64,000 nucleotides of DNA. It comes from Squalus acanthias. Its lineage: Eukaryota. Location: the NCBI GenBank assembly GCA_030390025.1, contig CM059431.1, forward strand, positions 97,032,001 to 97,096,000. Direction: 5' to 3'. Every line of letters starts with the position of its first letter. Position 1 is the stretch's first letter. The notes under the pieces were generated by a model. It made no database searches and was not told the DNA's origin. It saw only the letters and a program-made list of their open reading frames with translations. Positions 1-49,219 of this stretch are shown here, piece after piece. The translations under genes and the position numbers were made by a program.

Positions 1-2566
1 AACCCAAACACGAAGCATTCTGGAACCCAAACAACAAGCGTTCCAGGACCCAAACACCAAGTGTTCTGGAACCCAAACACCAAGTGTTCCAGGACCCAAA
101 CACCAAGCGTTCCAGGACCCAAACACCAAGCGTTCCAGGAACCAAACCCCAACTGTTCTGGAACCCAAACACCAAGCATTCCAGGACCCAAACACCAAGC
201 ATTCCAGGAACCAAACCCCAACATTTCTGGGACCCAAACTCCAAATGTTCCAGGACCCCAACCCCAAGAGTTTGAGGACCTAAACACCAAGCGTTCCAGG
301 ACCCAAACACCAGGCGTTCTGGAACCCAAACACCAAAAGTTCCAGATTCCAAACACCAAGCATTCTGGAACCCAAACACCAAGCTTTCCGGGACCCAAAC
401 ACCAAGCGTTCCAGGACCCAAACACCAACTGTTCTGGAACCCAAACACCAAGCTTTCCAGGACCCAAACACCAACTGTTCTGGAACCCAAATACCAAGCG
501 ATCCAGGACCCAAACACCAAGCGTTCTGGAACCCAAACACCAAGCGTTCCAGGACCCAAGCACCAAGTGTTCCAGGACCCAAACACCAAGCATTCCAGGA
601 CCCAATCACCAAGCATTCCAGGACGCAAACCCCAAGCGTTCCAGGACCCAAACACCAAGCATTCTAGGACCCAATCACCAAGCAAACTGGGCCCCAAACA
701 CCAAGTGTTCCAAGACCCAAACACCAAGCGTTCCAGAACCCAAACACTAAGTGTTCTGGAACCCAAACACTAAGCGTTATGGTACCCAAACATCAAGCAT
801 TCCAGGACCCAATACCGAAGCATTCCGGAATCCAAATACCAAGCGACCCAGGACCCAAACACCAAGCATTCCAAGACCCAATCACCAAGCATTCTGGAAC
901 CCAAACACCAAGTTTTCTGGGACCCAAACACCAAGCGTTCCAGGACCCAAACACCAAGCAAACTGGGATCCATACCCCAAGCATTCCGGAACCCAAACAC
1001 AAAATGTTCCAGGACCCAAACACCAAGCATTCCAGGACACAAACCCCAATTGTTCTGGAACCGAAACACCTAGCTTTCCAGGACCCAAACACCTAACGTT
1101 CTGGAACACAAACATGAAGCATTCCAGGACCCAAACACCAAGCGTTCTGGAACCCAAACACCAAGCGTTCCAGGACCCAAACACCAAGCATACCGGAACC
1201 CAAACACCAAGCATTCCGGGACCCAAACACCTAACATTCTGGAACCCAAACACGAATCATTCCCGGACCCAAACACCAAGCGTGCTGGAACCCAAACACC
1301 AAGCATTCCAGGACCCAAACACCTAACGTTCTGGAACCCAAACACGAAGCATTCCAGGATCCAAACCCCAAGCGTTCCAGGACTCAACCACCAAGCAAAC
1401 AGGGAGCCAAACACCAAGTGTTCCAGGACGCAAACCCCAAGCGTTCCAGGACCCAAACACCAAGCATTCCAGGACCCAATCACCAAATGTTCCAGGACGC
1501 AAACCCCAAGCGTTCCAGGACCCAAATTCCAAGCATTCTAGGACCCAAACACCACGCAAACTGGGCCCCAAACACCAAGCGTTCCAGGATCCAAACACCA
1601 AGTGTTCCAAGACCCAAACACCAAGCGTTCCAGAACCCAAACACTAAGAATTCTGGAACCCATAACACTAAGTGTTATGGAACCCAAACATCAAGCATTC
1701 CAGGACCCAAACCCCAAGCGTTCCGGAACCCAAATACCAAGCGATCCAGGACCCAAACACTAAGCGTTCTGGAACACAAACACGAAGTGTTATGGAACCC
1801 AAACATCAAGCATTCCGGGACCCAAACCCCAAGCGTTCTGGAACCCAAATACCAAGCGATCCAGGACCCAAACCTTAACCATACTGGGACCCAAACACAA
1901 AGTGTTCTGGGAGCCAAACCCCAAATGTTCCACGACCCAAACAACAAGCGTTCCGGGACTCAAACACCAAGAGTTCCAGGACCCAAACCCAAAATGTGCT
2001 GGAACCCAAACACCAAATGTTCCAGGACCCAAACACCAAGCATTCCAGGATCCAAACACCAAGCATTCCGGAACCCAAACACCAAGCGTTTGAAACCCAA
2101 ACACCATGCGTTCCAGGACCAAAACACCAAGCATTCTGGAACCCAAACACTAAGCATTATGGAACCGAAACAACTTGCATTCAGGAACGCAAACACCAAG
2201 CATTCCAGAACCCAAACTCCAAGCGTTCTGGAACCCAAACTCCAAGCGTTCCAGGACAAAACACCAAGCATTCTGGAACCCAAACACAAAGCATTCCGGA
2301 ACTCAAGCACCAAGCGTTCCAGGACCCAAACACCAAGTGTTCTGGGACCAAAACACGAAGCTAACTGGGCCCCAAACACCAAGCATTCTGGAACCCAAAC
2401 ACCAAGCAAACTGGGCCCCAAACACCAAGCATTCTGGAAACCAAGCACCAAGCAAACTGGAACCCAAACACCAAGCATTCCAGGGCCCAAACACCAAACG
2501 TTCCAGGACCCAAACACCAAGCATTCTGGGACCCAAACACCAACTGTTCTGGGACCCAAACACCAA

Positions 2567-3459
2567 GGGGTAAAAATTCACTTGGTTGCGCCACCCGTTA
2601 GCGCCTTAAGAGGGCGCTAATGGGGCGCAAAGCCGCTAACGCCCGGGCGCAGCGATGTTTGCGCCGCTCGAGAACTTAACTTGAGATTGTGCGGCGGCGC
2701 TAAAACTTACCGCTGCGACCACCTGCGCGCGCAGATTGTGACGTCATTCCATGGTGCAACGCCCTTGGGGTGCCCCGTAGCGGAAATTGAGTGGCGCCCC
2801 CTGCCTTACCGCCTGGCGCTTCCAACGACCAGAAGACTGGAACGCTATCAATCGCTGTGGGGCTGGTGGGGGCGCTATTTAAAGGGGGCCTCTTCCTGTC
2901 TTTTATTGTTGGTGGCATTTTTGAACTACGCATTCTGAGAGAGAGAGGGAGAGACTTCTGGAGAGATTCAACGTTGTGTGAAGGAGTTTTGGGTACTGAG
3001 CAGCACTTTGCAGGTTCATTTTGAATTACCATTCCTTGTATCGATTTAGCAGAGACCGTGGGAGCTGCACTCTGAGCTCTTTGCCTGGTGCTCTCCATTG
3101 TTCTTTCCAGCACATTTGATGTGCAAGTCTCTCCAGGCCGAGATTCAAGGCAGCAATGAACAGGATGTGGATGGAAAGCAAGATTAACCAACCCCTTTAA
3201 GAACTGGCCCGTGCCATTGTGTGTGTGTTCCATTGCTGACTGACATTACATGAGCTTCGCCAGCGCTCCGAGTTAGCCCCTCACTGCTCGGCCTTTGCGC
3301 CTTAAGAGAGGTGTGCAGTGCCTGCTTTAGCGCTCCACTCACCTCCCGGGGCGGTAAAAGTGAAGTTTCCCGTCAGTGCCGATAATTAGCGCCAGGCGCT
3401 AATATTTGCGTCCGGACGATATTTGCGCCCCAAATGGGGTGCGACCTAATTTCTACCCC
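2567..3459 (+). mobile_element. Non-autonomous Harbinger (MITE type I), 893 bp
   Basis: TIRs GGGGTAAAAATT / AATTTCTACCCC; TSD CAA/CAA; both ends match the full-length elements. Confidence 0.95.
2739..2883 (+). promoter_or_regulatory. Putative left-end promoter of the Harbinger family: TGACGTCA (CRE-like, 2739-2746) and TATTTAAA (2876-2883)
   Basis: The same motifs lie upstream of the transposase in full-length copies and are retained in all three MITE types. Confidence 0.55.
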
Positions 3460-6672: not shown

Positions 6673-7568
6673 GGGGGAAAAATTCAGTCGCGCCCCGTTT
6701 GGGGCGCAAATATCGTCCGGGTGCAAAATTAGCGCCTGGCGCTAATTATCGCCACTGACTGGAAACTTCACTTTTATCGACGCCTGAGGTGATTGGAGCA
6801 CTAAATCAGGCGCTTCACACCTGTCTTAAGGCGCAAAGGCCGAGGAGCGAGGCGCTACCTCAGAGCGCTGGCGAAGCTCATGTAATGTCAGTCAGCAATG
6901 GAACACACACACAATGGCACGGGCCAGTTCTTAAAGGGGATGGTTAATCTTGCTTTCCATCCACATCCTACTCATTGCAGCCTTGAATCTCGGCCTGGAG
7001 AGACCTGCACATCAAATCTGCTGGAAAGAACAATGGAGAGTACGAGGCAAAGAGCTCAGAGTGCAGCCCCCACAGTCTCTCCTAAATCGATACAAGGAAT
7101 GGCAAATCAAAATGAACCTGCAAAGTGCTGCTCAGTACCCAAAACTCCTTCACACAACGTTGAAACTCTCCAGAAGTCTCTCTCTCTCTCTCTCTCTCAG
7201 AATGCGTAGTTCAAAAATGGCACCAACAATAAAGGGCAGGTAGCGGTCACCTTTAAATAGCGCTCCCCCTTTCCCTTCATGACTGCAGAATGCTCCCTTC
7301 AACCTGTCGTTGCTAGCGTCAGGCGGTAAGGCAGGGGGCGCCATGCAATATCCGCTCCGGGGCGATACCGGGGTGTTGTGCACTCGACTGACGTCACGAT
7401 CTGCCGGCGCAGGAGATCGTGGCGGTAGTGTTTAGCGCCGCCGCAAAATGTCTAGTTAATTTCGCGAGTGGCGCAAACTTCGCCGGGCCTGGGCGCTAGC
7501 TGCTTTGTGCCCCATTAGCGCCCTCTTAAGGCGTTAACGGGAGGCGCAACCAACTGAATTTTTCCCCC
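6673..7568 (-). mobile_element. Non-autonomous Harbinger (MITE type II), 896 bp
   Basis: TIRs GGGGGAAAAATT / AATTTTTCCCCC; TSD TAA/TAA; reverse orientation; left subterminal region diverged from type I. Confidence 0.95.
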
Positions 7569-8106
7569 TAAGTGTTATGGAACCCAAACACCAAGGGGTA
7601 AAAATTCACTTGGTTGCGCCTCCCGTTAGCACCTTAAGAGGGCGCTAATGGGGTGTTAAGCCGCTAACGCCCGGGCGCAGCGCTGTTTGCGCCGCTCGAG
7701 AACTTAACTTGAGATTGTGCGGCGGCGCTAAAACTTACCGCTGCGACCACCTGCGCGCGCAGATTGTGACGTCATTCCATGGTGCAACGCCCTTGGGGCG
7801 CCCCGGAGCGGAAATTGAGTGGCGCCCCCTGCCTTACCGCCTGGCGCTTCCAACGACCGGAAGACTGGAACGTTATCAATCGGTGTGGGGCTGGGGGGGG
7901 CGCTATTTAAAGGGGGCCTCTTCCTGTCTTTTTCTGTGGTCGACATTTATGCACCACTCGTTCTGAGAGAGAGAGAGAGATTCGGAGAGAGAGAGAGAGA
8001 GACTTCTACATTGACTCAATGCTTTGTGAGGTAGTTTTGCCGAGTTCATCCTAACTTTGTTGCTACTTTAGTTGCTGTACCTCATTACTTTTCTGGCAAA
8101 GAGAAT

Positions 8107-9269
8107 ATGGGGGCTGCAATGATTGGGGGCGTCGTCCTGCTCCAGCTGAATCGGAGGATAGTGAGACGCAGACAGAGAGTGGCAATGATGGTCAGACGGA
8201 GGAGGGCCATCAGGCGCATGTACAGGAGAGCTTACCCTCCCAGGGTATATCGTGAACAGCTCTCCTACATCCATATGTCCGAGGAGCTGTGTTTGCGAAG
8301 GCTGCGATTCAGCAAGGAGGTGGTCACTGAGCTCTGCCACCTGCTGCAGCCAGATCTGCAGCCTCAGCTGAGGTCCAGGACATCTCTGTCGGTGGCAGTG
8401 AAGGTCACAGTGGCTTTGAACTTCTACGCCACTGGCTCATTCCAAGCTGCTGTTGGGGACCTCGCCAATATCTCCCAGTTTGCGGTGCATTGCTGCATCC
8501 GGCAGGTCACCAATGCCCTCTTCAGAAGGAGACGAGACTTCATCTCTTTCCCTATGACCCCAGACAAGCAGCAGTGACCGTGCTCTGGGCTTTGTGAGGG
8601 TAGCGGGCTTCCCCATGGTGCAGGGCGCCATTGACTGCACGCATGTGGCTTTGCGTGCTCCGCGAGAGAATGCAGAGGAATTCAGGAACAGAAAGGGGTT
8701 CCATTCCTTGAATGTGCAGTTGGTCTGTGACCACAGACAGGTGATACTCGCTGTCAATGCCCACTATCCGGGCAGCTGCCACGATGCTTTCATCCTGCGC
8801 CAGACTACTGTGGCAGAACTTTTCGAGGCACCGCATCAGCCAGTTGGTTGGCTTCTGGGGGACAAGGGGTACGCATTGAGCACCTGGCTGATGACACCGC
8901 TCCGTACGCCAAACACCCCTGCTGAGCTGCGGTACAATGAAAGCCATCAAGCAACCAGGAACATTATTGAGCGCACAATCGGCGTGCTGAAACAACGGTT
9001 CCGCTGTCTGGACCATTCCGGAGGAGCCCTGCAGTACTCGCCTGAGCAAGTTTCGAACTTCGTAGTCGTGTGCTGCATGTTGCACAACATGGCAATCCTC
9101 AGGACCCAGCCAATGCCACCAGGCCTTGTAGCACCACCAGAGGAGGAGGAGGAAGAGGAGGAACAGGACGAGGACGATGATCATCAGCAGCACCAAGGCA
9201 GGAGGGCGGCCCACAATGGTCAAACTGCAAGGGCCTGTCCGTCAACGACTAATAGTAAGCCGCTTCTAG
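8107..9269 (+). pseudogene. Harbinger (HARBI1-like, DDE_Tnp_4) transposase, disrupted
   Basis: GAIDCTH / LLGDKGY / RNIIERTIG motifs. Relative to the intact copy at 34809 there are +1 insertions near 8574 (CAGCAGTGA) and near 9236. Confidence 0.92.
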
Positions 9270-9563
9270 GGCCCCTGCCATTGCTACAAACACTAATCAA
9301 CCCAGCACGCAACCCCTAAGCCGGCCAAGGCACCAATAATTCCAACCACCAGCCATGTATATTTTGAATACAGAAACTTATTTATTTTACAAACTCTGTG
9401 TGTGTCAATTCCTCATGACAAACTCATAGAAATAAACACAAAAAAACAGTCAATAACATAACTGGTTCTCACAACCTGGAGATAATGTCCAAAACACTAA
9501 ACAAAAGTTGGACCATGAACCTCGGCCTTTAATAAAAAAATGACCAGCATTTTGGCACACCTC

Positions 9564-11386
9564 CTACTTTTTGCCCTTCGAGGGTGATCTCCTTCCCTTG
9601 CGCACTTCCCCCCTTCTAACCCTACTGCTCCTCCGTAATGGGACCTCAGTGGCTGCAGCAAGGCTGGTGGAAGGCTGCTGCTTGTGAGACCCTGACACTG
9701 CAGATGCCCCTGAAGGACGGCCTCGACCACTTCTGGGCCTGGAGGGCCCGGCTGCAGACTGCACCAACTCTGCATGGGCGGCAGCAGTCTGTCCTACAGG
9801 CGGTGGCAAGTGCAGTGGAGAAGTGACAGTGTTGGCAGCAGGAATGCTGTCATCGTGAGAGAGGACAGCAACTCCCTGCTCGCCCGACACACTGGCACTC
9901 CCACGGGGCAGCACTTCAGCATCCGGAGCAATTTGCCGGAGAACAGATTGCTGGCCTGCTGCGGCGCGGTGACAGCCCCGGGGACATGTGCACGAACCAT
10001 CGAGGATGGCAGCAGTCAGTGCTCGCGTGGCCTCAATCTGAGTCTGCATGAGAGCAGTCTCAGATGGGTTCCTGGCAGCCAGTGACTGAATTGCAGCACT
10101 AAGCTGTAGTGTGGCATCCGCCTGTGCTACAGCGAAGTGCTCCACACTCCTTGCCAGTGACTCAATGCATTCGGGCACCCTTCCCACTGCACCCATGAGC
10201 TCAGTGTGCATGCCCACTGCCTGGCTGTTCATTTCTGCAATCAGCCGCTCCTCCTCTGCGTCCATTGCAGTAGGAGTGTCTGGCATACTCTCCCTCTGGG
10301 GAGAAGGCTCCCGTTCTTCCCTCCCCCCCCCATGGCGTTGCTGCAGCCCGCTGGGTCCTGGAGCTTCACCATCATCAGCCCCTTCCCCCCTGCTCCCCTC
10401 CGGGGAAGGCGTGTTCCCAGTGTGGGCATGGGCTTCCTCGGGAGAGGGTGGCACTGATGCTCCGGCTTCCTCTTCCTCCTCAGCTGCAGCATCACTCCCA
10501 GTGGCAGCTTCAGGGCCCGTCTCCTCAGCTGGTGAATCACCATCTGAAAGCAGGGAGGTACAAGAGTGGCTTTAGCGTGAGGACAGGGTGGCAGTAAGGG
10601 AGGAATAAGTGCAGCGAGTTAGCAAGTTGGATTGAAAGTGTCAAAGGCTGGTATTGTGAGGGACAAGTGGAAGGACAGAGGACAAAAAGGTGATGACCTT
10701 ACCATTGCTGTCCACAACGGGGTCGGCGTCCCCAGTGGCGACGGGACCGATCACCCGGCTTGCCACAATCCTGTGGACGCGCTCCTCCAGATCGCTGAGG
10801 GGTTGCAGCTGAAGCCGCCCTCCACCCGTCCGTTGCTGCTGTCTCCGATTATGAGCCAGCTTAGCCTGCAAGAAAAAGGACAGCATCTGAGTAAATATAC
10901 AGCCATGGTCTTGCCTGATGTGCCTCCCATAGGTGAATAGCCCTTACAATATGCAGCCATGGTCTTGCCTGATGTGCCTCCCATAGGTGAATAGCCCTTA
11001 CTGTATGCAAAGTGTGGAATGTGTGTGTGTGTTTGATGAAAGGGCCATAGGTGTTGGATGAGTGTTGTGCATTGGGGTTTTAAGACCCTCTGGCCATAGA
11101 GTGAGGTTGAGATGGAGGGATGGAGAGGTATTGAGAAAAAGCCACTCACCCTGACGACCCGAGTGAGGTCGTTGAACTTTTTGTGGCACTGAACATGGGT
11201 CCTGGGCACCATGCTCCTGGAGGAGACGCTCTGAGCCACCTCCCTCCACACTCTTCTGAACTCGCGTGGCAAAGGCCTCCTGCCACTCTCCGGGAACAGC
11301 ATGCATCGTCTGCGCTCCACTGCGTCAACCAGAGCATCCAAGGCCCGCTCGGTGAAGCGATGAGCGCGTTCTCTCACCCTCTCCAT
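9564..11386 (-). CDS. Harbinger Myb/SANT-like DNA-binding protein, 3 exons (11386-11150, 10865-10703, 10543-9564), ~459 aa
   Basis: Exon 1 carries RF..L..LV...W..VA..V......R...QC.KKF.DL (Myb/SANT-like); exon 2 carries RTGGG. GT-AG sites with compatible phases give 1380 nt in frame. Confidence 0.85.
10900..11007. repeat. 54-bp tandem duplication in intron 1 of the Myb-like gene (present in all four full-length copies)
   Basis: CAGCCATGGTCTTGCCTGATGTGCCTCCCATAGGTGAATAGCCCTTAC..TATG occurs twice. Confidence 0.9.
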
Positions 11387-12390
11387 GCTTGGCAGCAAAA
11401 TGAATTACAGGTCTCTCCAGGCTGAGATTCAAGGCTGCAATGAGCAGGGTGTGGCTGGGGAGCAAGTGGCCCCCCCTGCTTTAAGAAGTGTCCGGCGCAA
11501 TTGTGTCTGTGTTCCCTCACTAACTGGCAGCAGCTGCGCTGCGCTCGTGCGCTGAGGTAGCGCCTCACTCCTAGGCCTTTGCGCCTTAAGAGAGGTGTGC
11601 AGCGCCTAATTTAGCGCTCCACTCACCTCCCGGGGCGGTAAAAGTGAAGTTTCCTGTCAGTGCCGATAATTAGCGCCAGACGCTAATATTTGCGCCCGGA
11701 CGATATTTGCACCCCAAATGGGGCGCGACCTAATTTCTACCCCCAAGTGTTCCAGGACCCAAACACCAAGCGTTCTGGAACCCAAACAGCAAACGTTCTG
11801 GGACCCAAACCCCAAGTGTTCTGGACCCAAACACCAAGATTTCCAGGACCCAAACACCAAGCAAACTGGGACCCAAACCCCAAATGTTCTGGAACACAAA
11901 CACCAAACGTTCCGGGACCCAAACACCAAGCATTCCAGTAACCAAACACTAACTGTTCTGGGACCCAAACACCAAGTATTCTGGGAACCCAAACAGCAAG
12001 CGTTTCAGGACCCAAACACCAAGCGTTCCAGGACCCAAACCCCAACTGTTCTGGAACCCAAACACCAACCGTTCTGGAACCCAAACAGCAAGCCTTCCAG
12101 GAGCCAAACACCAAGCCAACTGGGCCCAAAACAGCAAGCGTTCGACGACCCAAACACCAAGCGTTCCGGGAACCAAACACCAAGCGTTCCAGGACCGAAA
12201 CACCAAGCAAACTGGGCCCCAAACACAAAGCGTTCCAGGACCCAAACACCAAGCAAACTGGGCCCCAAACACCAAGCATTCTAGAAATCAAACACCAAGC
12301 GTTCCAGGACCCAAACCCCAACCGTTCCGGAACCCAAACCCCAACTGTTCTGGAACCCAAACACCAAGCGTTCCAGGACCCAAACACCAG

Positions 12391-35969: not shown

Positions 35970-36263
35970 GGCCCCTGCCATTGCTACAAACACGAATCAA
36001 CCCAGCACGCAACCCCTAAGCCGGCCAAGGCACCAATAATTCCAACCACCAGCCATGTATATTTTGAATACAGAAACTTATTTATTGTACAAACTCTGTG
36101 TGTGTCAATTCCTCATGACAAACTCATAGAAATAAACACAAAAAAACAGTCAATAACATAACTGGTTCTCACAACCTGGAGATAATGTCCAAAACACTAA
36201 ACAAAAGTTGGGCCATGAACCTCGGCCTTTAATAAAAAAATGACCAGCATTTTGGCACACCTC

Positions 36264-38173
36264 CTACTTTTTGCCCTTCGAGGGTGATCTCCTTCCCTTG
36301 CGCACTTCCCCCCTTCTAACCCTACTGCTCCTCCGTAATGGGACCTCAGTGGCTGCAGCAAGGCTGGTGGAAGGCTGCTGCTTGTCAGACCCTGACACTG
36401 CAGATGCCCCTGAAGGACGGCCTCGACCACTTCTGGGCCTGGAGGGCCCGGCTGCAGACTGCACCAACTCTGCATGGGCGGCAGCAGTCTGTCCTACAGG
36501 CGGTGGCAAGTGCAGTGGAGAAGTGACAGTGTTGGCAGCAGGAATGCTGTCATCGTGAGAGAGGACAGCAACTCCCTGCTCGCCCGACACACTGGCACTC
36601 CCACGGGGCAGCACTTCAGCATCCGGAGCAATTTGCCGGAGAACTGATTGCTGGCCTGCTGCGGCGCGGTGACAGCCCCGGGGACATGTGCACGAACCAT
36701 CGAGGATGGCAGCAGTCAGTGCTCGCGTGGCCTCAATCTGAGTCTGCATGAGAGCAGTCTCAGATGGGTTCCTGGCAGCCAGTGACTGAATTGCAGCACT
36801 AAGCTTTAGTGTGGCATCCGCCTGTGCTACAGCGAAGTGCTCCACACTCCTTGCCAGTGCCTCAATGCATTCGGGCACCCTTCCCACTGCACCCATGAGC
36901 TCAGTGTGCATGCTCACCGCCTGGCTGTTCATTTCTGCAATCAGCCGCTCCTCCTCTGCGTCCATTGCATTAGGAGTGTCTGGCATACTCTCCCTCTGGG
37001 GAGAAGGCTCCCGTTCTTCCCTCCCCCCCCCATGGCGTGGCTGCAGCCCGCTGGGTCCTGGAGCTTCACCATCATCAGCCCCTTCCCCCCTGCTCCCCCG
37101 TTCTTCCCTCCCCCCCCAATGGCGTTGCTGCAGCCCGCTGGGTCCTGGAACTTCACCATCATCAGCCCCTTCCCCCCTGCTCCCCTCCGGGGAAGGCGTG
37201 TTCCCAGTGTGGGCATGGGCTTCCTCGGGAGAGGGTGGCACTGATGCTCCGGCTTCCTCTTCCTCCTCAGCTGCAGCATCACTCCCAGTGGCAGCTTCAG
37301 GGACCATCTCCTCAGCTGGTGAATCACCATCTGAAAGCAGGGAGGTACAAGAGTGGCTTTAGCGTGAGGACAGGGTGGCAGTAAGGGAGGAATAAGTGCA
37401 GCGAGTTAGCAAGTTGGATTGAAAGTGTCAAAGGCTGGTATTGTGAGGGACAAGTGGAAGGACAGAGGACAAAAAGGTGATGACCTTACCATTGCTGTCC
37501 ACAACGGGGTCGGCGTCCCCAGTGGCGACGGGACCGATCACCCGGCTTGCCACAATCCTGTGGACGCGCTCCTCCAGATCGCTGAGGGGTTGCAGCTGAA
37601 GCCGCCCTCCACCCGTCCGTTGCTGCTGTCTCCGATTATGAGCCAGCTTAGCCTGCAAGAAAAAGGACAGCATCTGAGTCAATATACAGCCATGGTCTTG
37701 CCTGATGTGCCTCCCATAGGTGAATAGCCCTTACAATATGCAGCCATGGTCTTGCCTGATGTGCCTCCCATAGATAAATAGCCCTTACTGTATGCAAAGT
37801 GTGGAATGTGTGTGTGTGTTTGATGAAAGGGCCATAGGTGTTGCATGAGTGTTGTGCATTGGGGTTTTAAGACCCTCTGGCCATAGAGTGAGGTTGAGAT
37901 GGAGGGATGGAGAGGTATTGAGAAAAAGCCACTCACCCTGACGACCCGAGTGAGGTCGTTGAACTTTTTGCGGCACTGAACATGGGTCCTGGGCACCATG
38001 CTCCTGGAGGAGACGCTCTGAGCCACCTCCCTCCACACTCTTCTGAACTCGCGTGGCAAAGGCCTCCTGCCACTCTCCGGGAACAGCATGCATCGTCTGC
38101 GCTCCACTGCGTCAACCAGAGCATCCAAGGCCCGCTCGGTGAAGCGATGAGCGCGTTCTCTCACCCTCTCCAT
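36264..38173 (-). CDS. Myb/SANT-like protein, 3 exons (38173-37937, 37652-37490, 37330-36264), ~488 aa
   Basis: Same splice sites as the other copies; exon 3 has an in-frame 87-bp duplication. Confidence 0.85.
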
Positions 38174-38557
38174 GCTTGGCAGCAAAATGAATTACAGGTC
38201 TCTCCAGGCTGAGATTCAAGGCTGCAATGAGCAGGGTGTGGCTGGGGAGCAAGTGGCCCCCCCCCGCTTTAAGAAGTGTCCGGCGCCAGTGTGTCTGTGT
38301 TCCCTCGCTAACTGGCAGCAGCTGCGCTGCGCTCGTGCGCTGAGGTAGCGCCTCACTCCTAGGCCTTTGCGCCTTAAGAGAGGTGTGCAGCGCCTAATTT
38401 AGCGCTCCACTCACCTCCCGGGGCGGTAAAAGTGAAGTTTCCTGTCAGTGCCGATAATTAGCGCCAGGCGCTAATATTTGCGCGCGGACGATATTTGCGC
38501 CCCAAATGGGGCGCGACGTAATTTCTACCCCTAAGCATTCTGGAACCCAAACACCAA

Positions 38558-39452
38558 GGGGGAAAAATTGAGTTGGTTGCGCCTCCCGTTAGCGCCTTAA
38601 GAGGGCGCTAATGGGGCGCAAAGCAACTAGCGCCTGGGCGCAGCGATGTTTGCGCCGCTCGCGAACTTAACTAGACATTTTGCGGCGGCGCTAAACACTA
38701 CTGCCACGATCTCCTGCGCTGGCAGATCGAGACGTCAGTCGAGTGCGCAACGCCCCGGTATCGCCCCGGAGCGGATATTGAGTGGCGCCCCCTGCCTTAC
38801 CGCCTGACGCTAGCAACGACAGGTTGAGGGGAGCGTTCTGCAGTCAGGAAGGGAGAGGGGGAGCGCTATTTAAAGGTGACCGCTTCCTGCCTTTTATTGT
38901 TGGTGCCATTTTTGAACTCCGCATTCTGAGAGAGAGAGAGAGAGAGACTTCTGGAGAGATTCAACGTTGTGTGAAGGAGTTTTGGGTACTGAGCAGCACT
39001 TTGCAGGTTCATTTTGATTTGTCATTCCTTGTATCGATTTAGAAAAGAATGTGGGGGCTGCACTCTGAGCTCTTTACCTGGTACTCTCCATTGTTCTTTC
39101 CAGCAGATTTGATGTGCAGGTCTCTCCAGGCCGAGATTCAAGGCTGCAATGAGCAGGATGTGGATGGAAAGCAAGATTAACCATCCCCTTTAAGAACTGG
39201 CCCGTGCCATTGTGTGTGTGTTCCATTGCTGACTGACATCACATGAGCTTCGCCAGCGCTCTGAGGTAGCGCCTCGCTCCTCGGCCTTTGCGCCTTAACA
39301 CAGGTGTGAAGTGCCTGATTTAGTGCTCCAATCACTTCCAGGGGCGATAAAAGTCAAGTTTGCAGTCGGTGGCGATAATTAGCGCCAGGCGCTAATCTTT
39401 GCGCCCGGCCGATAATTGCGCCCCAAATGGGGCGATACTGAATTTCTCCCCC
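38558..39452 (+). mobile_element. Harbinger MITE type II, 895 bp
   Basis: TIRs; TSD CAA/CAA; one satellite unit away from the preceding element. Confidence 0.95.
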
Positions 39453-40421
39453 CAAGTATTTTGGGACCCAAACACCAAGCGTTCTGTAACCCAAACACCA
39501 AGCGTTCTGTAACCCAAACACCAAGCGTTCTGTAACCCAAACACCAAGCGTTCTGTAACCCAAACACCAAGCGTTCTGTAACCCAAACACCAAGCGTTCT
39601 GTAACCCAAACACCAAGCATTATGGAACCCAAACACTAAGCATTATGGAACCCAAACACCTAACATTCCGGAACACAAACACCAAGCATTCCGGAACCCA
39701 AACACCAAGCGTTCCAGGACTCAAACACCAAGCGTTCCAGGACCCAAACACCAAGCGTTCCAGGACCCAAACACCAAGCGTTCCAGGACCCAAACACCAA
39801 GCGTTCTGGGACCTAAACAACAAGCTTTCCGGGACCCAAACACCAAGCAAACTGGGACCCAAACACGAAGTGTACCAAGACCTAAACATTCTAGTGTTCT
39901 GGGACCCAAACAGCAAGCATTCCAGGACCAAAACACCAAGCATTCCAGGACCAAAACACCAAGCATTCTGGAACCCAAACGCAAAGCTTACCGGAACAAA
40001 AGCACCAAGTGTTTCGGGACCCAAACACCAAGCATTCCGTGATTGAAACACAAAGCCTTACAGGATCCAAACACCAACCGTTCCGGGACCCAAACACCAA
40101 GCATTCCGGGACTCAAACACCAAGCATACTGGAACCCAGACACCAAGTGTTCCGGGACCCAAACACCAAGCATTCTGAAATTGAAACATCAAGCGTTCTG
40201 GAACCGAAACACCAAGCGTTCCATGACCCTAACACCAAGTTTACAGGACTCAAACACCAAGCGTTTCAGGATCCAAACACCAAGTGATCTGAGACCCAAA
40301 CACCAAGCGTTCAAGGACCCTAACAACAACCATTCCAGGACCCAAACACCAAGCATTCCAGGAACCAAACACCAAGCATTCTGGAACCCAAACACCAAGC
40401 TTTCCGGAACCCAAGCACCAA

Positions 40422-41312
40422 GGGGTAAAAATTCAGTTGGTTGCGCCTCCCGTTGCGCCTTAAGAGGGCGCTAATGGGGCGCAAAGTCGCTAATGCCCGG
40501 GCGCAGCGATGGTTGCGCCGCTCGGGAACTTAACTAGAGATTGTGCGGCGGCGCTAAACTTTACCGCTGCGACCACCTGCGCGCGCAGATTGTGACGTCA
40601 TTCCATGGTGCAACGCCCTTGTGGCGCCCCGGAGCAGAAATTGAGTGGCGCCCCCTGCCTTACCGCCTGGCGCATCCAACGACCAGAAGACTGGAACGCT
40701 ATCAATCGCTGTGGGGCTGGTGGGGGCGCTATTTAAAGGAGGCCTCTTCCTGTCTTTTATTGTTGGTGGCATTTTTGAACTACGCATTCTGAGAGCGAGA
40801 GGGAGAGACTTCTGGAGAGATTCAACATTGTGTGAAGGAGTTTTGGGTACTGAGCAGCACTTTGCAGGTTCATTTTCATTTGCCATTCCTTGTATCGATT
40901 TAGCAGAGACTGTGGGAGCTGCACTCTGAGCTCTTTGCCTGGTACTCTCCATTGTTCTTTCCAGCACATTTGATGTGCAAGTCTCTCCAGGCCGAGATTC
41001 AAGGCTGCAATGAACAGGATGTGGATGGAAAGCAAGATTAACCATCCCCTTTAAGAACTGGCCCGTGCCATTGTGTGTGTGTTCCATTGCTGACTGACAT
41101 TACATGAGCTTCGCCAGCGCTCTGAGTTAGCGCCTCACTCCTTGGCCTTTGCGCCTTAAGACAGGTGTGCAGCGCCTGATTTAGCGCTCCACTCACCTCC
41201 CAGGGCGGTAAAAGTGAAGTTTCCAGTCAGTGCCGATAATTAGCGCCAGGCGCTAATATTTGCGTCCAGACGATATTTGCGCCCCAAATGGGGCGCGACC
41301 TAATTTTCCCCC
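40422..41312 (+). mobile_element. Harbinger MITE type I, ~891 bp
   Basis: TIRs (right TIR 1 nt short); TSD CAA/CAA. Confidence 0.93.
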
Positions 41313-42487
41313 CAAATGTTTTGGGACCCAAACAACAAGCATTCTGAAACCCAAATACTAAGTGTTCTGGAACCCAAACACCAAACGTCTGGAACCCAAA
41401 CACCAAGCGTTCCGGTATTCAAACACAATGCATTCCAGACCCAAACTCCAAGTGTTCCGGGACCCAAACACCAAGCTTTCCGGAACCCAAACACCAGGTT
41501 TTCTGAGACCCAAACACAAGCGTTCCAGGACCCAAACACCAGCATTCCAGGACCCAAACACCAATCGTTCTGGAACCAAACACCAAGCGTTCCGGGACCC
41601 AAACACCAAGCATTCTGGAACCAAACACCAAGCGTTCTTGGACCCAAACAACAAGCGTTCCAGGACACAAACACCAGGATTTCTGGGACACAAACACCAA
41701 GCAAACTAGGACCCAAACACCAAGTGCACCAAGACCCAAACATCCAAGCATTCTGGAACCCAAACAGCAAGCGTTCTGGAACCCAAACACCAAGCGTTCA
41801 GGAACCCAAGCACCAAGTGTTCCGGGATTCAAACACAATGCGTTCCAGGACCCAAACTCCAAGCATTCCGGGACCCAAACACCAAGCTTTCTGGGACTCA
41901 AACACCAAGCGTTCTGGGACCCAAACACCAAGCGTTCTGGGACCCAAACACCATGTGTTCTGGAACCAAACACCAAGGGGGAAAAATTCAGTTGGTTGCG
42001 CCTCCCGTTAGCGCCTTAAGAGGTCGCAAATGGGGCGCAAAGCCGCTAGCGCCCGGGCGCAGCGATATTTGCGCCGCTCGGGAACTTAACTAGACATTGT
42101 GCGGCGGCGCTAAACTTTACCGCTACGACCACCTGCGCGCGCAGATTGTGACGTCATTCCATGGTGCAACGCCCTTGTGGCGCCCCGGAGCGGAAATTGA
42201 GTGGCGCCCCCTGCCTTACCGCCTGGCGCATCCAACGACCGGAAGACTGGAACGCTATCAATCGCTGTGGGGCTGGGGGGGGCGCTATTTAAAGGGGGCC
42301 TCTTCCTGTCTTTTTCTGTGGTTGACATTTTTGCACCACTCGTTCTGAGAGAGAGAGAGAGATTCGGAGAGAGAGAAAGAGAGACTTCTGCATTGAGTCA
42401 ACGCTTTGTGAGGTAGTTTTTTCTACTGATCCTAACTTCGCTGGTACTTTGGTTGCTGTCCTTCATAACTTTGCTTGCAAAGAGACT

Positions 42488-43645
42488 ATGGGGGCTGCAC
42501 TGAATGGGGGCGTCATCCTGCTCCAGCTGAATCGGAGGACACAGAGACGCAGAGAGAGAGTGGCAATGATGGCCAGACGGAGGAGGGCCAACAGGCGTCT
42601 GTACAGGAGAGCTCACCCTCCCAGGGTATATCGTGAACAGCTGTCCTACATTCATTTGTCTGAGGAGCTGTGTTTGCGAAGGCTGCAATTCAGCAAGGAG
42701 GTGGTCACTGAGCTCTGCCACCTGCTGCAGCCAGATCTGAGGTCCAGGACGTCTCTGTCGGTGGCAGTGAAGGTCACAGTGGCTCTCAACTTCTATGCTA
42801 CTGGCTCATTTCAAGCTGCTGCTGGGGACCTCGCCAATATCTCCCAGTTCACGGTGCATTGCTGCATCCGGCAGGTCACAAATGCCCTCTTTAAAAGGAG
42901 ACGAGAGTTCATCTCTTTCCCCATGACCCCAGACAAGCAGCGTGACCGCGCTCTGGGCTTTGCGAGGATAGCGGGCTTCCCCATGGTGCAGGGCGCCATT
43001 GACTGCACGCATGTGGCTTTGCGTGCTCCACATGAGAATGCCGAGGATTTCCGGAACAGAAAGAGGTTCCATTCCTTGAATGTTCAGTTGGTCTGTGACC
43101 ACAGACAGCTGATACTCGCTGTCAATGCCCACTATCCTGGCAGCTGCCACGATGCTTTCATCCTGCGCCAGACTACTGTGGCAGAACTTTTCGAGGCACC
43201 GCATCAGCCAGTTGGTTGGCTTCTCGGGGACAAGGGGTATCCATTGAGCACCTGGCTGATGACACCGCTCCGTACGCCCAACACCCCTGCTGAGCTGCGG
43301 TACAACGAGAGCCATCAAGCTACCAGGAACATCATTGAGCGCACAATCGGCGTGCTGAAGCAACGGTTCCGCTGTCTCGACCATTCTGGAGGAGCCCTGC
43401 AGTACTCGCCTGAGCGAGTATCCAACTTCGTAGTTGTGTGCTGCATGTTGCATAACATGGCAATCGTCAGTACCCAGCCAATGCCACCAGGCCTTGGAGC
43501 ACCACCAGAGGAGGAGGAGAAAGAGGAGGAAGAGGAGGAAGAGGACGAGGAGGATGATCATCAGCAGCACCAAGGCGGGAGGGCGGCCCACAATGGTGAA
43601 ACTGCAAGGGCCGTCCGTCAATGGCTGATAGCAAGCCGCTTCTAG
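42488..43645 (+). CDS. Harbinger DDE transposase, 385 aa
   Basis: Uninterrupted ORF from ATG 42488; DDE triad intact; 4-aa deletion (QPQL) and KGF>KRF relative to the other copies. Confidence 0.93.
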   Translation: MGAALNGGVILLQLNRRTQRRRERVAMMARRRRANRRLYRRAHPPRVYREQLSYIHLSEELCLRRLQFSKEVVTELCHLLQPDLRSRTSLSVAVKVTVALNFYATGSFQAAAGDLANISQFTVHCCIRQVTNALFKRRREFISFPMTPDKQRDRALGFARIAGFPMVQGAIDCTHVALRAPHENAEDFRNRKRFHSLNVQLVCDHRQLILAVNAHYPGSCHDAFILRQTTVAELFEAPHQPVGWLLGDKGYPLSTWLMTPLRTPNTPAELRYNESHQATRNIIERTIGVLKQRFRCLDHSGGALQYSPERVSNFVVVCCMLHNMAIVSTQPMPPGLGAPPEEEEKEEEEEEEDEEDDHQQHQGGRAAHNGETARAVRQWLIASRF

Positions 43646-43955
43646 GGCCCCTGCTGTGGAAATGGCTTCTGCCATTGCTAACAACATCAATGAACCCAGG
43701 ACGCAACCCCTAAGCCGGCCAAGGCACCAATGATTCCAAACACCAAACATGTATATTTTGAATACAAAAACTTATTTATTTTACAAACTCTGTGTGTGTC
43801 ATTTCCTCATGACAAACTCATAGAAATAAACACAAAAAAAGTCATTAACATAACTGGTTCTCACAACCTGGAGATAATGTCCAAAACACTAGACAAAAGT
43901 TGGACCACGAACCTCGGCCTTTAATAAAAAAATGACTAGCATTTTGTCACACCTC

Positions 43956-45775
43956 CTACTTTTTGCCCTTCGAGGGTGATCTCCTTCCCTTGCGCACTTC
44001 CCCCCTTCTAACCCTACTGCTCCTCCGTAATGGGACCTCAGTGGCTGCAGCAAGGCTGGTGGAAGGCTGCTGATTGTCAGACCCTGACACTGCAGATGCC
44101 CCTGAAGGACGGCCTCGACCAGTTCTGGGCCTGGAGGGCCCGGCTGCAGACTGCACCAACTCTGCATGGGCGGCAGCAGTCTGTCCTACAGGCGGTGGCA
44201 ACTGCAGTGGAGAAGTGACAGTGTTGGCAGCAGGAATGCTGTCATCGTGAGAGAGGACAGCAACTCCCTGCTCGACCGACACACTGGCACTCCCAAGGGG
44301 CAGCACTTCAGCATCCGGAGCAATCTGCTGGAGCACAGATTGCTGGCCTGCTGCGGCGCGGTGAGAGCCCCGGGGACATGTGAACGAACCATCGAGGTTG
44401 GCAGCAGTCAGTGCTCGCGTGGCCTCAATCTGAGTCTGCATGAGAGCAGTCAGAGATGGGATCACGGCAGTCAGTGACTGAATTGCAGCACTAAGCTTTA
44501 GTGTGGCATCCGCCTGTGCTACAGCGAAGTGCTCCACACTCCTTGCCAGTGACTCAATGCATTCGGGCACCCTTCCCACTGCACCCATGAGCTCAGTGTG
44601 CATGCCCACCGCCTGGGTGTTCATTTCTGCGATCAGCCGCTCCTCCTCTGCGTCCATTGCAGTAGGAGTCGCTGGCATACTCTCCCTCTGGGGAGAAGGC
44701 CCCCGTTCTTCCCTACCCCCATGGCGTTGCTGCAGCCCGCTGGGTCCTGGAGCTTCACCCTCATCAGACCCTTCCCCCCTGCTCCCCTCCAGGGAAGGCG
44801 TGTTCCCAGTGTGGGCATGGGCTTCCTCGGGAGAGGGTGGCACTGATGCTCCGGCTTCCTCTTCCTCCTCGGCTGCAGCTTCACTCCCACTGGCAGCTTC
44901 AGGGCCCGTCTCCTCAGCTGGTGAATCACCATCTGAAAGCAGGGAGGTACAAGAGTGGCTTTAGCGTGAGGACAGGGTGGCAGTAAGGGAGGAATAAGTG
45001 CAGCGAGTTAGCAAGTTGGATTGAAAGTGTCAAAGGCTGGTGTTGTGACGGACAAGTGGAAGGACAGAGGACAAAAAGGTGATGACCTTACCATTGCTGT
45101 CCAGAACGGGGTCGGCGTCTCCAGTGGCGACGGGACCGATCACCCGGCTTGCCACAATCCTGTGGACGCGCTCCTCAAGATCGCTGAGGGGTTGCAGCTG
45201 AGGCCGCCCTCCACCTGTCCGTTGCTGCTGTCTCCTATTATGCGCCAGCTTGGCCTGCAAGAAAAAGGACAGCATCTGAGTAAATATACAGCCATGGTCT
45301 TGCCTGATGTGCCTCCCATAGGTGAATAGCCCTTACTGTATGCAGCCATGGTCTTGCCTGATGTGCCTCCCATAGATGAATAGCCCTTACTGTATGCAAA
45401 GTGTGGAATGTGTGTGTGTGTTTCATGAAAGGGCCATAGGTGTTGGATGAGTGTTGTGCATTGGGGTTTTAAGACCCTCTAGCCATAGAGTGAGGTTGAG
45501 ATGGAGGGATGGAGAGGTATTGAGAAAAAGCCACTCACCCTGACGACCCGAGTGAGGTCGTTGAACTTTTTGCGGCATTGAACATGGGTCCTGGGCACCA
45601 TGCTCCTGGAGGAGACGCTCTGAGCCACCTCCCTCCACACTCTTCTGTACTCGCGTGGCAAAGGCCTCCTGCCACTCTCAGGGAAGAGTATACATCTTCT
45701 GCGCTCCACCGCGCCAACCAGAGCATCCAAGGCCTGCTCGGTGAAGCGCTGAGCTCGTTCTCTCACCCTCTCCAT
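43956..45775 (-). CDS. Myb/SANT-like protein, 3 exons (45775-45539, 45254-45092, 44932-43956), ~458 aa
   Basis: Conserved GT-AG junctions; 1377 nt in frame. Confidence 0.85.
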
Positions 45776-46320
45776 CCTTGGCAGCAAAATGGATTCACAG
45801 GTCTCTCCAGGCCGAGATTCAAGGCTGCAATGAGCAGGGTGTGGCTGGGGAGCAAGTTGGCCCCCCCTGCTTTAAGAACTGGCCGGCGCCAGTGTGTCTG
45901 TGTTCCCTTGCTAACTGGCAGCACCTGCGCTGCGCTCGCGCGCTGAGTTAGCGCCTCACTGCTCGGCCTTTGCGCCTTAAGACAGTGTGCAGCGCCTGAT
46001 TTAGCGCTCCACTCACGTCCCGGGGCGGTAAAAGTGAAGTTTCCAGTCAGTGGCGATAATTAGCGCCAGACGCTAATTTTTGCGTCCAGACGATATTTGC
46101 GCCCCAAATGGGGTGCGACCTAATTTTTTCCCCCAAGTGTTTCGGAACCCAAAGACCAAGCGTTTCGGAACCCAAACACCAAACGTTCTGGGATTGAAAC
46201 ACAAAGTGTTCCAAGACCCAAACACCAACCTTTCCGGGACCAAAACACCAAGCATTCTGAAACCTAAACACCAAACATTCCGGAACCCAAACACCAAGCG
46301 TTCCGGGACCCAAACACTAA

Positions 46321-47214
46321 GGGGTAAAAATTCACTTGGTTGCGCCACCCGTTAGTGCCTTAAGAGGGCGCTAATGGGGCGCAAAGCCGCTAACGCCCGG
46401 GCGCAGCGATGTTTGCGCCGCTCGAGAACTTAACTTGAGATTGTGCGGCGGCGCTAAAACTTACCGCTGCGACCACCTGCGCGCGCAGATTGTGACGTCT
46501 TTCCATGGTGCAACGCCCTTGGTGCGCCCCGTAGCGGAAATTGAGTGGCGCCCCCTGCCTTACCGCCTGGCGCTTCCAACGACCAGAAGACTGGAAGGCT
46601 ATCAATCGCTGTGGGGCTGGGGGGGGGCGCTATTTAAAGGGGGCCTCTTCCTGTCTTTTATTGTTGGTGGCATTTTTGAACTACGCATTCTGAGAGAGAG
46701 AGGGAGAGACTTCTGGAGAGATTCAACGTTGTGGGAAGGAGTTTTGGGTACTGAGCAGCACTTTGCAGGTTCATTTTGATTTGCCATTCCTTGTATCGAT
46801 TTAGCAGAGACCGTGGGAGCTGCACTCTGAGCTCTTTGCCTGGTGCTCTCCATTGTTCTTTCCAGCACATTTGATGTGCAAGTCTCTCCAGGCCGAGATT
46901 CAAGGCAGCAATGAACAGGATGTGGATGGAAAGCAAGATTAACCATCCCCTTTAAGAACTGGCCCGTGCCATTGTGTGTGTGTTCCATTGCTGACTGACA
47001 TTACATGAGCTTCGCCAGCGCTCCGAGTTAGCGCCTCACTGCTCGGCCTTTGCGCCTTAAGAGAGGTGTGCAGCGCCTGCTTTAGCGCTCCACTCACCTC
47101 CCGGGGCGGTAAAAGTGAAGTTTCCCATCAGTGCCGATAATTAGCGCCAGGCGCTAATATTTGCGTCCGGACGATATTTGCGCCCCAAATGGGGCGCGAC
47201 CTAATTTCTACCCC
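46321..47214 (+). mobile_element. Harbinger MITE type I, 894 bp
   Basis: TIRs; flanks TAA/CAA (mismatched). Confidence 0.94.
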
Positions 47215-47286: not shown

Positions 47287-48181
47287 GGGGGAGAAATTCA
47301 GTATCGCCCCATTTGGGGCGCAATTATCGGCCAGGCGCAAAGATTAGCGCCTGGCGCTAATTATCACCTCCAACTGCAAACTTGGCTTTTATCGCCCCTG
47401 GAGGTGATTGGAGCGCTAAATCAGGCGCTTCACAACTGTCTTAAGGCGCAAAGGCCGAGGAGCGAGGCGCTACCTCAGAGCGCTGGCGAAGCTCATGTGA
47501 TGTCAGTCAGCAATGGAACACAGACACAATGGCACCAGCCAGTTCTTAAAGGGGAGGGTTGATCTTGCTCTCCATCAACATCCTGCTCATTGCAGCCTTG
47601 AATCTCGGCCTGGAGAGACCTGTACATCAAATCTGCTGGAAAGAACAATGGAGAGACCCAGGGAAAGAGCTCAGAGTGCAGCCCCCACAGTCTCTTCTAA
47701 ATCGATACAAGGAAGGGCAAATCAAAATGAACCTGCAAAGTGCTGCTCAGTACCCAAAACTCCTTCACACAGCGTTGAATCTCTCCAGAAGTCTCTCTCT
47801 CTCTCTCTCAGAATGCGTGGTGCAAAAATGTCACCAACAAAAAAAGGCAGGAAGCGGTCGCCTTTAAATAGCGCTCCCCCAGTCCCTTCCTGACTGCAAA
47901 ACGCTCCCCTCAACCTGTCGTTGCTAGCGGCAGGCGGTAAGGCAGGGGGCGCCACTCAATATCCGCTCCGGGGTGCTACCTGGAGCGTTGCGCACTCGAC
48001 TGACGTCACGAGCTGCCTGCGCAGGAGAGCATGGCAGTAGTGTTTAGCACCGCCGCAAAATGTCTAGTTAATTTCGTGAGTGGCGCAAACATCGCCGCGC
48101 ACGGGCACTAGTTGCTTTGCGCCCCATTAGCGCCCTCTTAAGGCGCTAACGTGAGGTGCAAACCAACTGAATTTTTCCCCC
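47287..48181 (-). mobile_element. Harbinger MITE type II, 895 bp
   Basis: TIRs; TSD CAA/CAA. Confidence 0.95.
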
Positions 48182-49219
48182 CAAGTGTTCCGGAACCCAA
48201 ACACCAAGGGTCCCGGAACCCAAACACCAAGGATTCTGGAACCCAAACACCAAGCGTTCCAGGACCCAAACACCAAGCTTTCTGGAACCCAAACACTAAG
48301 CATTCTGGAAGCCAAACACCAAGTATTTCGGGACCCAAACACCAAGCGTTCTGGAACTCAAACGCTAAGCGTTCTGGGACCCAAACACCAAGCGTTCCGG
48401 GACCCAAACACCAAGCGTTCTGTAACCCAAACACCAAGCGTTATGGAACGCAAGCACCAAGTGTTTCAGGACATCAACACCAAGCATTCTGGAACCCAAA
48501 CACTTAACGTTTCGGAACCCAAACACCAAACATTCCAGAACCTAAACACCAAGCGTTCTGGGATTCAAACACAAAACATTCCAGGACCCAAACACCAAGT
48601 GTTGTGGGACCCAAACACCAAGCGTTCCAGGACCCAAACATCAAGCATTCCAGGACCCAAATACCAAGCGTTCTGAAACCCAAACACCAAGTGTTTCAGA
48701 ATACAAACACCAAGCGTTCCAGAACCCAAACACCAAGCGCTCTGGAACCCAAACAACAAATGTTCAGAACCCAAACAACAAATGTTCCAGAACCCAAACA
48801 CCAAGCATTCCAGGACCCAAACACAAAGCGTTCCAGGACCCAAACACCAAGCGTCCCGGGACCCAAACACCAAGCATTCCGGGACCCAAACACCAAGCGT
48901 TCCGGGACCCAAACACCAAGCGTTCTGGGACCCAAACACCAAGTGTTCTGGAACCCAAACACCAAGCGTTCCGGAACCCAAACACCAAGCGTTCTGGAAC
49001 CCAAACACCAAGTGTTCTGGAACCCAAACACCAAGTGTTCCGGAACCCAAACACCAAGCGTTCTGGGACCCAAACACTAAGCAGTCTGGGACCCAAACAT
49101 CAAACGTTCCGGGGCCTAAACACTAAGCAGTCTGGGGCCCCTTTCTTTGAAGTCTTGGCGAAGTTCTTTGTGGACCACTCAACACATCCTGTCACACTCA
49201 CCTGGAGGGGAAAGTGGAC

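Follow-up and report, generated by a model that had tools for sequence, protein, structure and literature searches.

Harbinger transposons at a fixed position of a 23-bp satellite in Squalus acanthias: insertion into a palindromic target site

The zebrafish system Harbinger3_DR/Harbinger3N_DR, reportedly reconstructed by Sinzelle et al. in 2008, is the described system closest to a set of Harbinger transposons in the cartilaginous fish Squalus acanthias, which lie in an array of a 23-bp satellite on contig CM059431.1 of assembly GCA_030390025.1 (positions 97,032,001 to 97,096,000 of the forward strand; this whole stretch of 64,000 nucleotides is the window of the analysis). Harbinger3_DR has the target consensus AAACACCWGGTCTTT (PMC3016246), and requires both of its proteins, of which the Myb-like one binds the element ends and carries the transposase into the nucleus (PMC2836001, PMC9710019). 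In both fishes a 3-bp duplication arises at the centre of a palindromic target of about 15 bp, the left half of which, AAACAC, is identical in the two systems, and the right half of which reads GTGTTT here and GTCTTT there, with 5/6 bases equal. A previous reading of the S. acanthias window, made from the sequence without database searches (the sequence-only reading), had cited the zebrafish consensus for its left half-site; this consensus proved correct, and the likeness covers both half-sites rather than the left alone. The two systems differ in the central triplet (CWG in zebrafish versus CAA or TAA here), in the tandem delivery of the target by a satellite and in the host, here a cartilaginous fish.

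Strong sequence specificity is rare among eukaryotic cut-and-paste transposons, and in this context a 2022 paper names only Pokey, CryptonV and Dada (PMC8869645). Pokey occurs as autonomous forms and as MITEs (miniature inverted-repeat transposable elements) at one specific site of the ribosomal DNA (rDNA) of Daphnia and also elsewhere in the genome (PMC4912750, PMC3706591). Like the elements described here, it is a cut-and-paste transposon found at one site of a tandem repeat (the 28S rDNA). However, it belongs to the piggyBac family and targets TTAA, and its repeat is a functional gene array and not a non-coding 23-bp satellite. Dada, which inserts into small RNA genes, and CryptonV, which inserts into microsatellites (PMC3706591, PMC8869645), are likewise DNA transposons with specific target sequences in multi-copy DNA, but their enzymes are unrelated, their target site duplications (TSDs) measure 6-7 bp or are missing, and their targets are different. 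Non-LTR retrotransposons such as R2 in rDNA and the Tx1-group families in microsatellites and satellites (PMC4494074, PMC8869645) also place many copies at the same phase of a tandem repeat, although they do so by copy-and-paste through RNA with a target-specific endonuclease, without terminal inverted repeats or a palindromic site and in one orientation only. The passages of PMC3706591 and PMC8869645 that list target-specific DNA transposons contain no PIF/Harbinger member, and in the literature searched no Harbinger or other DNA transposon at a fixed satellite phase was found, although an earlier description in Repbase or in subscription journals (Kapitonov & Jurka 2004) is possible. Literature matches to the satellite sequence itself were primer coincidences only. 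The mechanism is already known in kind, as palindromic target specificity of the Harbinger3_DR type; the novelty lies in the host group, in a satellite that presents imperfect targets in tandem and in the possibility of reading occupancy variant by variant.

The satellite, here termed sat1, occupies positions 1 to 49140, where masking with its consensus leaves 18 blocks, all on the plus strand and none on the minus strand, separated by 17 gaps. The array continues past the left edge of the window, and the 49,140 bp are the part inside it. All 17 gaps are complete transposons with the ends GGGG(T/G)A(A/G)AAATT... and ...AATTT(C/T)T(A/C)CCCC, and 17 of 17 follow AARCAC and a 3-bp TSD, which bears out the claim of the sequence-only reading that the insertions share one fixed position of the repeat. 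The hexamer before the insertion is AAACAC in 13 cases and AAGCAC in four (elements 10, 11, 14 and 17), the same counts as reported earlier. Fourteen of the 17 have identical TSD copies, elements 4, 9 and 16 have a one-base mismatch between the two, and the right flank, previously described as mostly GYRTT, has this form in 15 (the exceptions being 11 and 14). Eleven elements lie in plus and six in minus orientation. For 16 independent events, the number established below, the chance of sharing one of 23 phases is (1/23)^15 = 4e-21. The elements integrate into a palindromic site in either orientation and duplicate 3 bp in doing so. What is demonstrated comprises the fixed phase, genuine 3-bp duplications for which empty paralogs exist, independent events, an occupancy that increases with palindrome quality and the coding capacity of the long copies; together these make it very probable that these are site-specific cut-and-paste Harbinger insertions into a palindromic motif, for which the satellite is a passive hot spot and not an evolved device. 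Fixed phase and occupancy rising with palindrome score thus uphold the sequence-specific cut-and-paste mode proposed before.

The satellite and its elements are given below by window position, with each site written as left hexamer, TSD (both copies where they differ) and right flank.

1..49140, plus strand: sat1, 23-bp satellite (consensus unit ACCCAAACACCAAGCGTTCCGGG), reported by Tandem Repeats Finder in blocks between 2 and 49128
2567..3459, plus strand: element 1, MITE of family M1, 893 bp; site AAACAC-CAA-GTGTT
6673..7568, minus strand: element 2, MITE of family M2, 896 bp; site AAACAC-TAA-GTGTT; exactly one satellite unit from element 3
7595..11743, plus strand: element 3, long copy of subfamily A, 4149 bp; site AAACAC-CAA-GTGTT
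12391..13150, minus strand: element 4, MITE of family M3, 760 bp; site AAACAC-CAG/CAA-GCGTT
15315..16208, minus strand: element 5, MITE M1, 894 bp; site AAACAC-CAA-GCATT
20052..24222, plus strand: element 6, long copy of subfamily B, 4171 bp; site AAACAC-CAA-GTGTT
24592..25483, plus strand: element 7, MITE M2, 892 bp; site AAACAC-CTA-GTGTT
29303..30198, plus strand: element 8, MITE M1, 896 bp; site AAACAC-CAA-GCATT; empty paralog at 39937-39939
30294..31189, minus strand: element 9, MITE M1, 896 bp; site AAACAC-CAC/CAA-GCATT; empty paralog at 40029-40031
32110..33006, plus strand: element 10, MITE M1, 897 bp; site AAGCAC-TAA-GTGTTT
33286..34178, minus strand: element 11, MITE of the M2 sub-branch, 893 bp; duplicate of element 17, with one satellite unit lost at the right edge
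34297..38531, plus strand: element 12, long copy A, 4235 bp; site AAACAC-TAA-GCATT; empty paralog at 48297-48299
38558..39452, plus strand: element 13, MITE M2, 895 bp; site AAACAC-CAA-GTATT; one unit from element 12; empty paralog at 48320-48322
40422..41312, plus strand: element 14, MITE M1, 891 bp; site AAGCAC-CAA-ATGTT
41977..46133, plus strand: element 15, long copy B, 4157 bp; site AAACAC-CAA-GTGTTT
46321..47214, plus strand: element 16, MITE M1, 894 bp; site AAACAC-TAA/CAA-GTGTT; empty paralog at 33214-33216
47287..48181, minus strand: element 17, MITE of the M2 sub-branch, 895 bp; site AAGCAC-CAA-GTGTT; one event with element 11

The set consists of four long copies with two genes each (4149-4235 bp) and 13 MITEs, of which 12 measure 891-897 bp and the remaining one 760 bp. 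Together they measure 28,204 of the 49,140 bp (57%), in accordance with the earlier estimate of about 28 kb; the repeat DNA of sat1 amounts to about 21.1 kb. The division into two long subfamilies and three MITE families in both orientations also stands. Subfamily A (elements 3 and 12) and subfamily B (6 and 15) show 98.3% identity within each pair and 94-95% between them. M1 comprises elements 1, 5, 8, 9, 10, 14 and 16 (95.6-98.7% identity), M2 comprises 2, 7 and 13 with the sub-branch of 11 and 17, and M3 is element 4 alone. A terminal inverted repeat of about 12 bp, GGGG(T/G)A(A/G)AAATT, with imperfect matches further in, is common to long copies and MITEs. M1 and M2 share with the long copies their first 400 bp or so and their last 337 bp or so at 80-92% identity, and M3 only its ends, about 88 and 65 bp. 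Element lengths are uniform, and no further element fragments and no nested elements occur in the window. The lack of nesting, to which the sequence-only reading had drawn attention, is trivial, since the elements hold no match to AARCAC-N3-GYRTT.

The elements belong to the PIF/Harbinger family, in agreement with the earlier assignment, as transposase type, Myb-like second gene, 3-bp TSD and terminal inverted repeats all match. Pfam searches of the long copies found a DDE_Tnp_4 transposase (PF13359; E 4.2e-40 and 3.9e-40) and, on the opposite strand, a Myb_DNA-bind_5 domain (PF13873; E 7.7e-8 and 4.5e-9). The transposase frame is open in element 12 (34809-35969, plus strand, 386 amino acids) and element 15 (42488-43645, plus strand, 385 amino acids), and both proteins keep the invariant blocks when aligned with 11 homologues. 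It is broken in element 3 (8107-9319, plus strand) by a 1-bp insertion near 8574 and in element 6 (20564-21732, plus strand) by a 1-bp deletion near 21046. The Myb-like gene lies on the minus strand at 9564-11386 in element 3, about 22045-23863 in element 6, 36264-38173 in element 12 and 43956-45775 in element 15, with three predicted exons that are all open in 3, 12 and 15; exon 3 is frameshifted in 6. M1 copies diverge by just 1.3-4.4%. The open frames in elements 12 and 15 and this low divergence suggest a recently active family that is possibly still competent. Retained duplicated triplets at the target phase, the footprints of excision, number zero in the array, which says nothing if excision is precise.

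Two further repeats were observed inside the long copies. An 87-bp tandem duplication at 37010-37185, present only in element 12, lies inside the predicted third Myb-like exon and leaves the frame open. A 54-bp repeat of about two copies lies in the predicted first Myb-like intron of all four long copies (10894-11009, 23373-23486, 37680-37796 and 45285-45398).

The choice among satellite units was tested by comparing the 16 events (with element 17 representing the duplicated pair) with 878 empty, uninterrupted sat1 units. An intact AARCAC precedes all 16 occupied sites compared with 70.8% of empty units (p = 0.004), and the right half GTGTT follows 9/16 compared with 11.2% (p = 2e-5). A T at position +6 is found in 5/16 occupied sites and in 4.3% of empty units (p = 6e-4). 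The consensus right half GCGTT, in contrast, accounts for 1/16 occupied sites and 27.8% of empty units, which corresponds to a per-unit occupancy of 1/245 for GCGTT versus 9/107 for GTGTT. The consensus sat1 unit is therefore a poor target site, and the multimerised recognition site that the sequence-only reading saw in the satellite is not an optimised one. It is precisely a T at +2 and at +6 that turns the right half into the reverse complement of AAACAC, so that the real target is the palindrome AAACAC-N3-GTGTTT. If each unit receives one point for every position in -6..-1 that is complementary to its partner in +1..+6 (maximum 6), occupancy is 0/193 at scores of 2 or less, 4/322 at 3, 2/287 at 4, 9/89 at 5 and 1/3 at 6 (Mann-Whitney p = 1.5e-5). 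The ranking of variants by occupancy is GTGTTT > GTGTT >> GCATT > GCGTT, GCAAA. The triplet TAA is also over-represented (4/16 by the left TSD copies).

CpG decay after insertion was considered as a source of the GTGTT excess and rejected. Decayed sites have a TG:CA ratio of 9:4 when occupied versus 98:190 when empty (p = 0.012), and in all five pairs of filled and empty paralogs described below the right half-site is shared.

A related satellite to the right of sat1 provides a natural comparison for the second half-site:

50144-50444 and 54942-58441, plus strand: sat2, 23-bp satellite with unit CCCAAACACCAGGCAAACTGGGG, about 90% unit identity

The AAACAC half is common to both satellites, and sat2 has GCAAAC where sat1 has GCGTTC. 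With 153 AAACAC left half-sites and no right half-site, sat2 holds no Harbinger insertion, whereas 3.8 insertions would be predicted on the assumption that the left half suffices (P = 0.02). Similarly, 0/55 of the sat2-like GCAAA units within sat1 are occupied. Both half-sites thus appear to be needed for insertion.

The surroundings of sat2 contain other repeats. A 46-bp repeat (50445-50751, 6.7 copies) adjoins it, and a CR1/L2-like long interspersed nuclear element (LINE) of about 4.2 kb (about 50752-54941), with stops in its endonuclease and reverse-transcriptase frames, interrupts it. 3' fragments of a similar LINE lie at 49190-49830 and 62116-63192 and share the tail ...CTCCTATTTCTTATGTTCTTAT.

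The 17 elements are the result of 16 independent insertion events. In an array of uniform orientation, the closest element pairs are oppositely oriented (1/5 at 98.5% identity, 5/16 at 98.7% and 8/9 at 98.1%), and although the TSD triplets vary from one copy to another, the two triplets of a copy agree (TAA/TAA in three cases, CTA/CTA in one). Where two elements share family and orientation, the gapped identity of their flanks over 26-138 bp is 0.73-0.85, against a background with a mean of 0.78 and a 95th percentile of 0.85. Only the pair 11/17 exceeds this background, with 0.97 on the left. When 92 bp on each side of every insertion were scanned against the element-free array, 66 of the best 68 context matches listed for the 17 sites were empty sites, and the other two were the reciprocal matches of 11 and 17. 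These two elements go back to one insertion, which was copied when about 1.3-1.5 kb of the array underwent segmental duplication: they are 97.8% identical, their left flanks agree at 88/92 bp once element 16 is taken out, and their right flanks show 96-98% identity over about 140 aligned bp with unit-length gaps allowed. The odd right flank GGGTC of element 11 results from the loss of one unit at its right edge, and the original site, AAGCAC-CAA-GTGTT, is retained at element 17. Descent of the copies from a few insertions by duplication, which the sequence-only reading had named as the outcome that would contradict it, is consequently true of this pair alone and false for the 16 events.

Empty paralogs of filled sites include those in two stretches of the array:

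39880..40088, plus strand: empty paralog of the neighbourhood of elements 8 and 9, with identical distinctive variant units and both sites unoccupied
48182..48500, plus strand: right arm of the 11/17 duplication, with the empty counterparts of the sites of elements 12 and 13

Flanks match the empty paralogs at 114/120 bp for element 8, 116/120 for element 9 and 108/120 for element 16, and the empty counterparts of 12 and 13 belong to an aligned stretch of about 140 bp with 96-98% identity. Elements 12 and 13 entered one copy of the duplication later, and element 16 the other, so that each has an empty paralog. In all five filled/empty pairs the filled copy equals the empty copy plus the element and a further triplet; both members have the same right half-site. 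The state of the half-site is therefore older than the insertion.

A mechanism that would account for these observations begins with an integration machinery that picks AAACAC-N3-GTGTTT, a palindrome of 15 bp, and duplicates its middle 3 bp. Sat1 offers the left half-site in about 71% of its units and a right half (GCGTTC) that is one or two bases off, and it is this combination in each unit that makes the array a series of about 900 tandem imperfect targets. At least 16 separate transpositions, all at one phase and in either orientation, favoured the units nearest to the palindrome. A two-fold symmetric complex of transposase and Myb-like protein could read the AAACAC half-sites 3 bp apart and cut with a 3-bp stagger. 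Decay of CpG to TpG in GCGTT before insertion may have yielded the better GTGTT sites, and insertions may have stayed because they are costless in a satellite.

Several points weigh against this account or narrow it. The symmetric complex is suggested by the symmetry of the site and by Harbinger3_DR, the likeness to which is one of target and mode of action and not of compared transposases, and the three-exon Myb-like gene model is drawn from open frames alone. The enrichment results come from several tests on 16 events, and the excess of TAA drops to 3/16 (p = 0.03) when the left copy in element 16 is treated, following its paralog, as a later mutation. Moreover, AAGCAC is over-represented among occupied sites (3/16 vs 1.9%, or 17/878, of empty units; p = 0.0045) and its G at -4 gives no palindrome gain, so the motif accounts for less than everything. 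The insertions are also clustered, with 10/17 located between 29303 and 48181 in 144 of 908 units (simulation P = 0.002), and the members of two pairs, 2/3 and 12/13, sit in neighbouring units (P = 0.03). The density of GTGTT units is not raised in the clustered stretch; local hopping, for example from the long copies, or regional accessibility may be the cause of the clustering. Target specificity, finally, is demonstrated inside this array only.

Relatives of the transposase are numerous, with 336 database proteins at E <= 1e-20. Among the 120 listed of these, 113 bear the names of sharks, rays, sawsharks or sawfish, and the label 'putative nuclease HARBI1' that all 113 carry is automatic. 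The best match is 65% identical, and copies of the host itself are probably missing from the protein database. When the first Myb exon was searched against longer proteins, the one match was an uncharacterised ray protein at 50% identity, which establishes no link to NAIF1 either way. Among metagenome contigs the element-end pattern had no matches and the transposase no confirmed relatives.

Public sequencing runs offer a view of copies beyond the window. Element 5 with its flanks is represented by 35-81% of sampled words in 20 listed runs from 12 studies (organism codes A-K). Mapping this MITE with 40-bp flanks at 85% likeness in four runs gave 18,411 and 25,846 matching contigs for the two organism A runs, 78 for organism C and 18 for organism G; with a length of about 100 bp, these contigs mostly lie inside the element, break at repeats and rarely cross element ends. 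In the organism A runs the summed depth reaches about 1-2 million over the MITE, while the left satellite flank has 12 thousand in one run and 0.8 thousand in the other, a difference of 100-1000 times, measured on contigs of about 100 bp and with only flanks at least 85% similar counted. About 100 contigs in each organism A run, which carry a related end-variant, run on into non-satellite sequence. As a lead only, this suggests a MITE family that is very abundant and mostly without this satellite as flank. Past the alternative end, 103 and 111 contigs yield a non-satellite consensus (agreement 0.74 and 0.75) with ...TCTTT as its last letters; it may represent just the majority letters of mixed flanks and was not used as evidence for the motif.

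Pieces of element 5 at 99% identity or more were also observed in runs of other organisms (codes C and G), including 18 of 78 contigs in the run X9, where the flanks are non-satellite. Related species or horizontal spread could account for such near-identical pieces.

The most direct alternative to repeated insertion is the multiplication of a few insertions through in-register unequal crossing-over or through segmental duplication of the array, which would preserve the phase automatically. This process did occur once, in elements 11 and 17, and the array contains other recent duplications, among them an 893-bp block (16935-17826 vs 19165-20051, 93.5% identity) with one end at the insertion point of element 6. 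In addition, the median best non-self match of 92-bp contexts is 0.91, which points to recent blockwise amplification of sat1. As the main cause, however, co-amplification is refuted by near-identical elements in opposite orientations, by triplets that differ between copies and agree within them, by flank pairs that (11/17 aside) are all at background identity and by the empty paralogs of five filled sites, and it retains almost no probability.

Other alternatives accept site-specific insertion and assign the satellite a role. The sequence-only reading had called the array a landing pad, safe haven or decoy trap, of which the landing pad stands, as a passive array of imperfect targets, while the other two remain speculation that finds no support here. 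A safe haven would mean that the family, in the manner of R2 with rDNA and Dada with small-RNA genes, evolved its specificity for sat1 and thereby let coding-competent copies persist in it harmlessly. It would fit the two of four long copies in which both genes are open, the 57% of the 49 kb that is element DNA and the multi-copy nature of the target, and the use of multi-copy DNA by target-specific DNA transposons is a recognised strategy (PMC3706591, PMC8869645). However, the consensus unit is the poor site described above (1/245 occupied), and the depths in organism A (about 1-2 million over the MITE versus 0.8-12 thousand over the flank), together with the end-variant contigs that run on into other sequence, point away from confinement to the satellite. 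Moreover, the zebrafish element uses a near-identical target, and the specificity is therefore probably older than sat1; the safe haven is for these reasons considered unlikely. That the host has kept or expanded the array as a transposon sink, for example as a small-RNA silencing cluster, is less likely still, to the point of being hardly credible: the dense accumulation of several families at one locus and its clustering are all that speaks for it, whereas the consensus unit is sub-optimal bait, the adjoining sat2 has no right half-site, and ordinary satellite dynamics with target specificity explain the pattern sufficiently. The broader proposition that the satellite is no bystander, its expansion having been favoured through the uptake of a high-copy, sequence-specific transposon, either as a host sink or small-RNA trap or as an element refuge that preserves coding-competent copies, is regarded as unlikely, and so is the separate idea that AAACAC-N3-GTKTTT specificity is ancient in a HARBI1-related Harbinger clade. 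Site-specific insertion into a passive array of imperfect palindromes is accordingly the preferred reading.

A 2022 survey reports Harbinger as undetected in the elephant shark and calls for analyses of other cartilaginous fishes (PMC9179366). With the present locus, cartilaginous fishes join the hosts of apparently recent Harbinger activity, and palindromic targeting like that of Harbinger3_DR is found in a very different vertebrate. The array also constitutes a natural site library, in which about 900 target variants lie in one chromatin context and occupancy can be read for each variant, and elements 12 and 15 provide candidate proteins for a eukaryotic transposase with natural site specificity. 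Should the specificity be common with zebrafish by descent, it would bear on the DNA that is recognised by the domesticated HARBI1 nuclease, and if it is an ancient property of the clade, present in cartilaginous and bony fishes, it would predict the DNA site of domesticated HARBI1/NAIF1.

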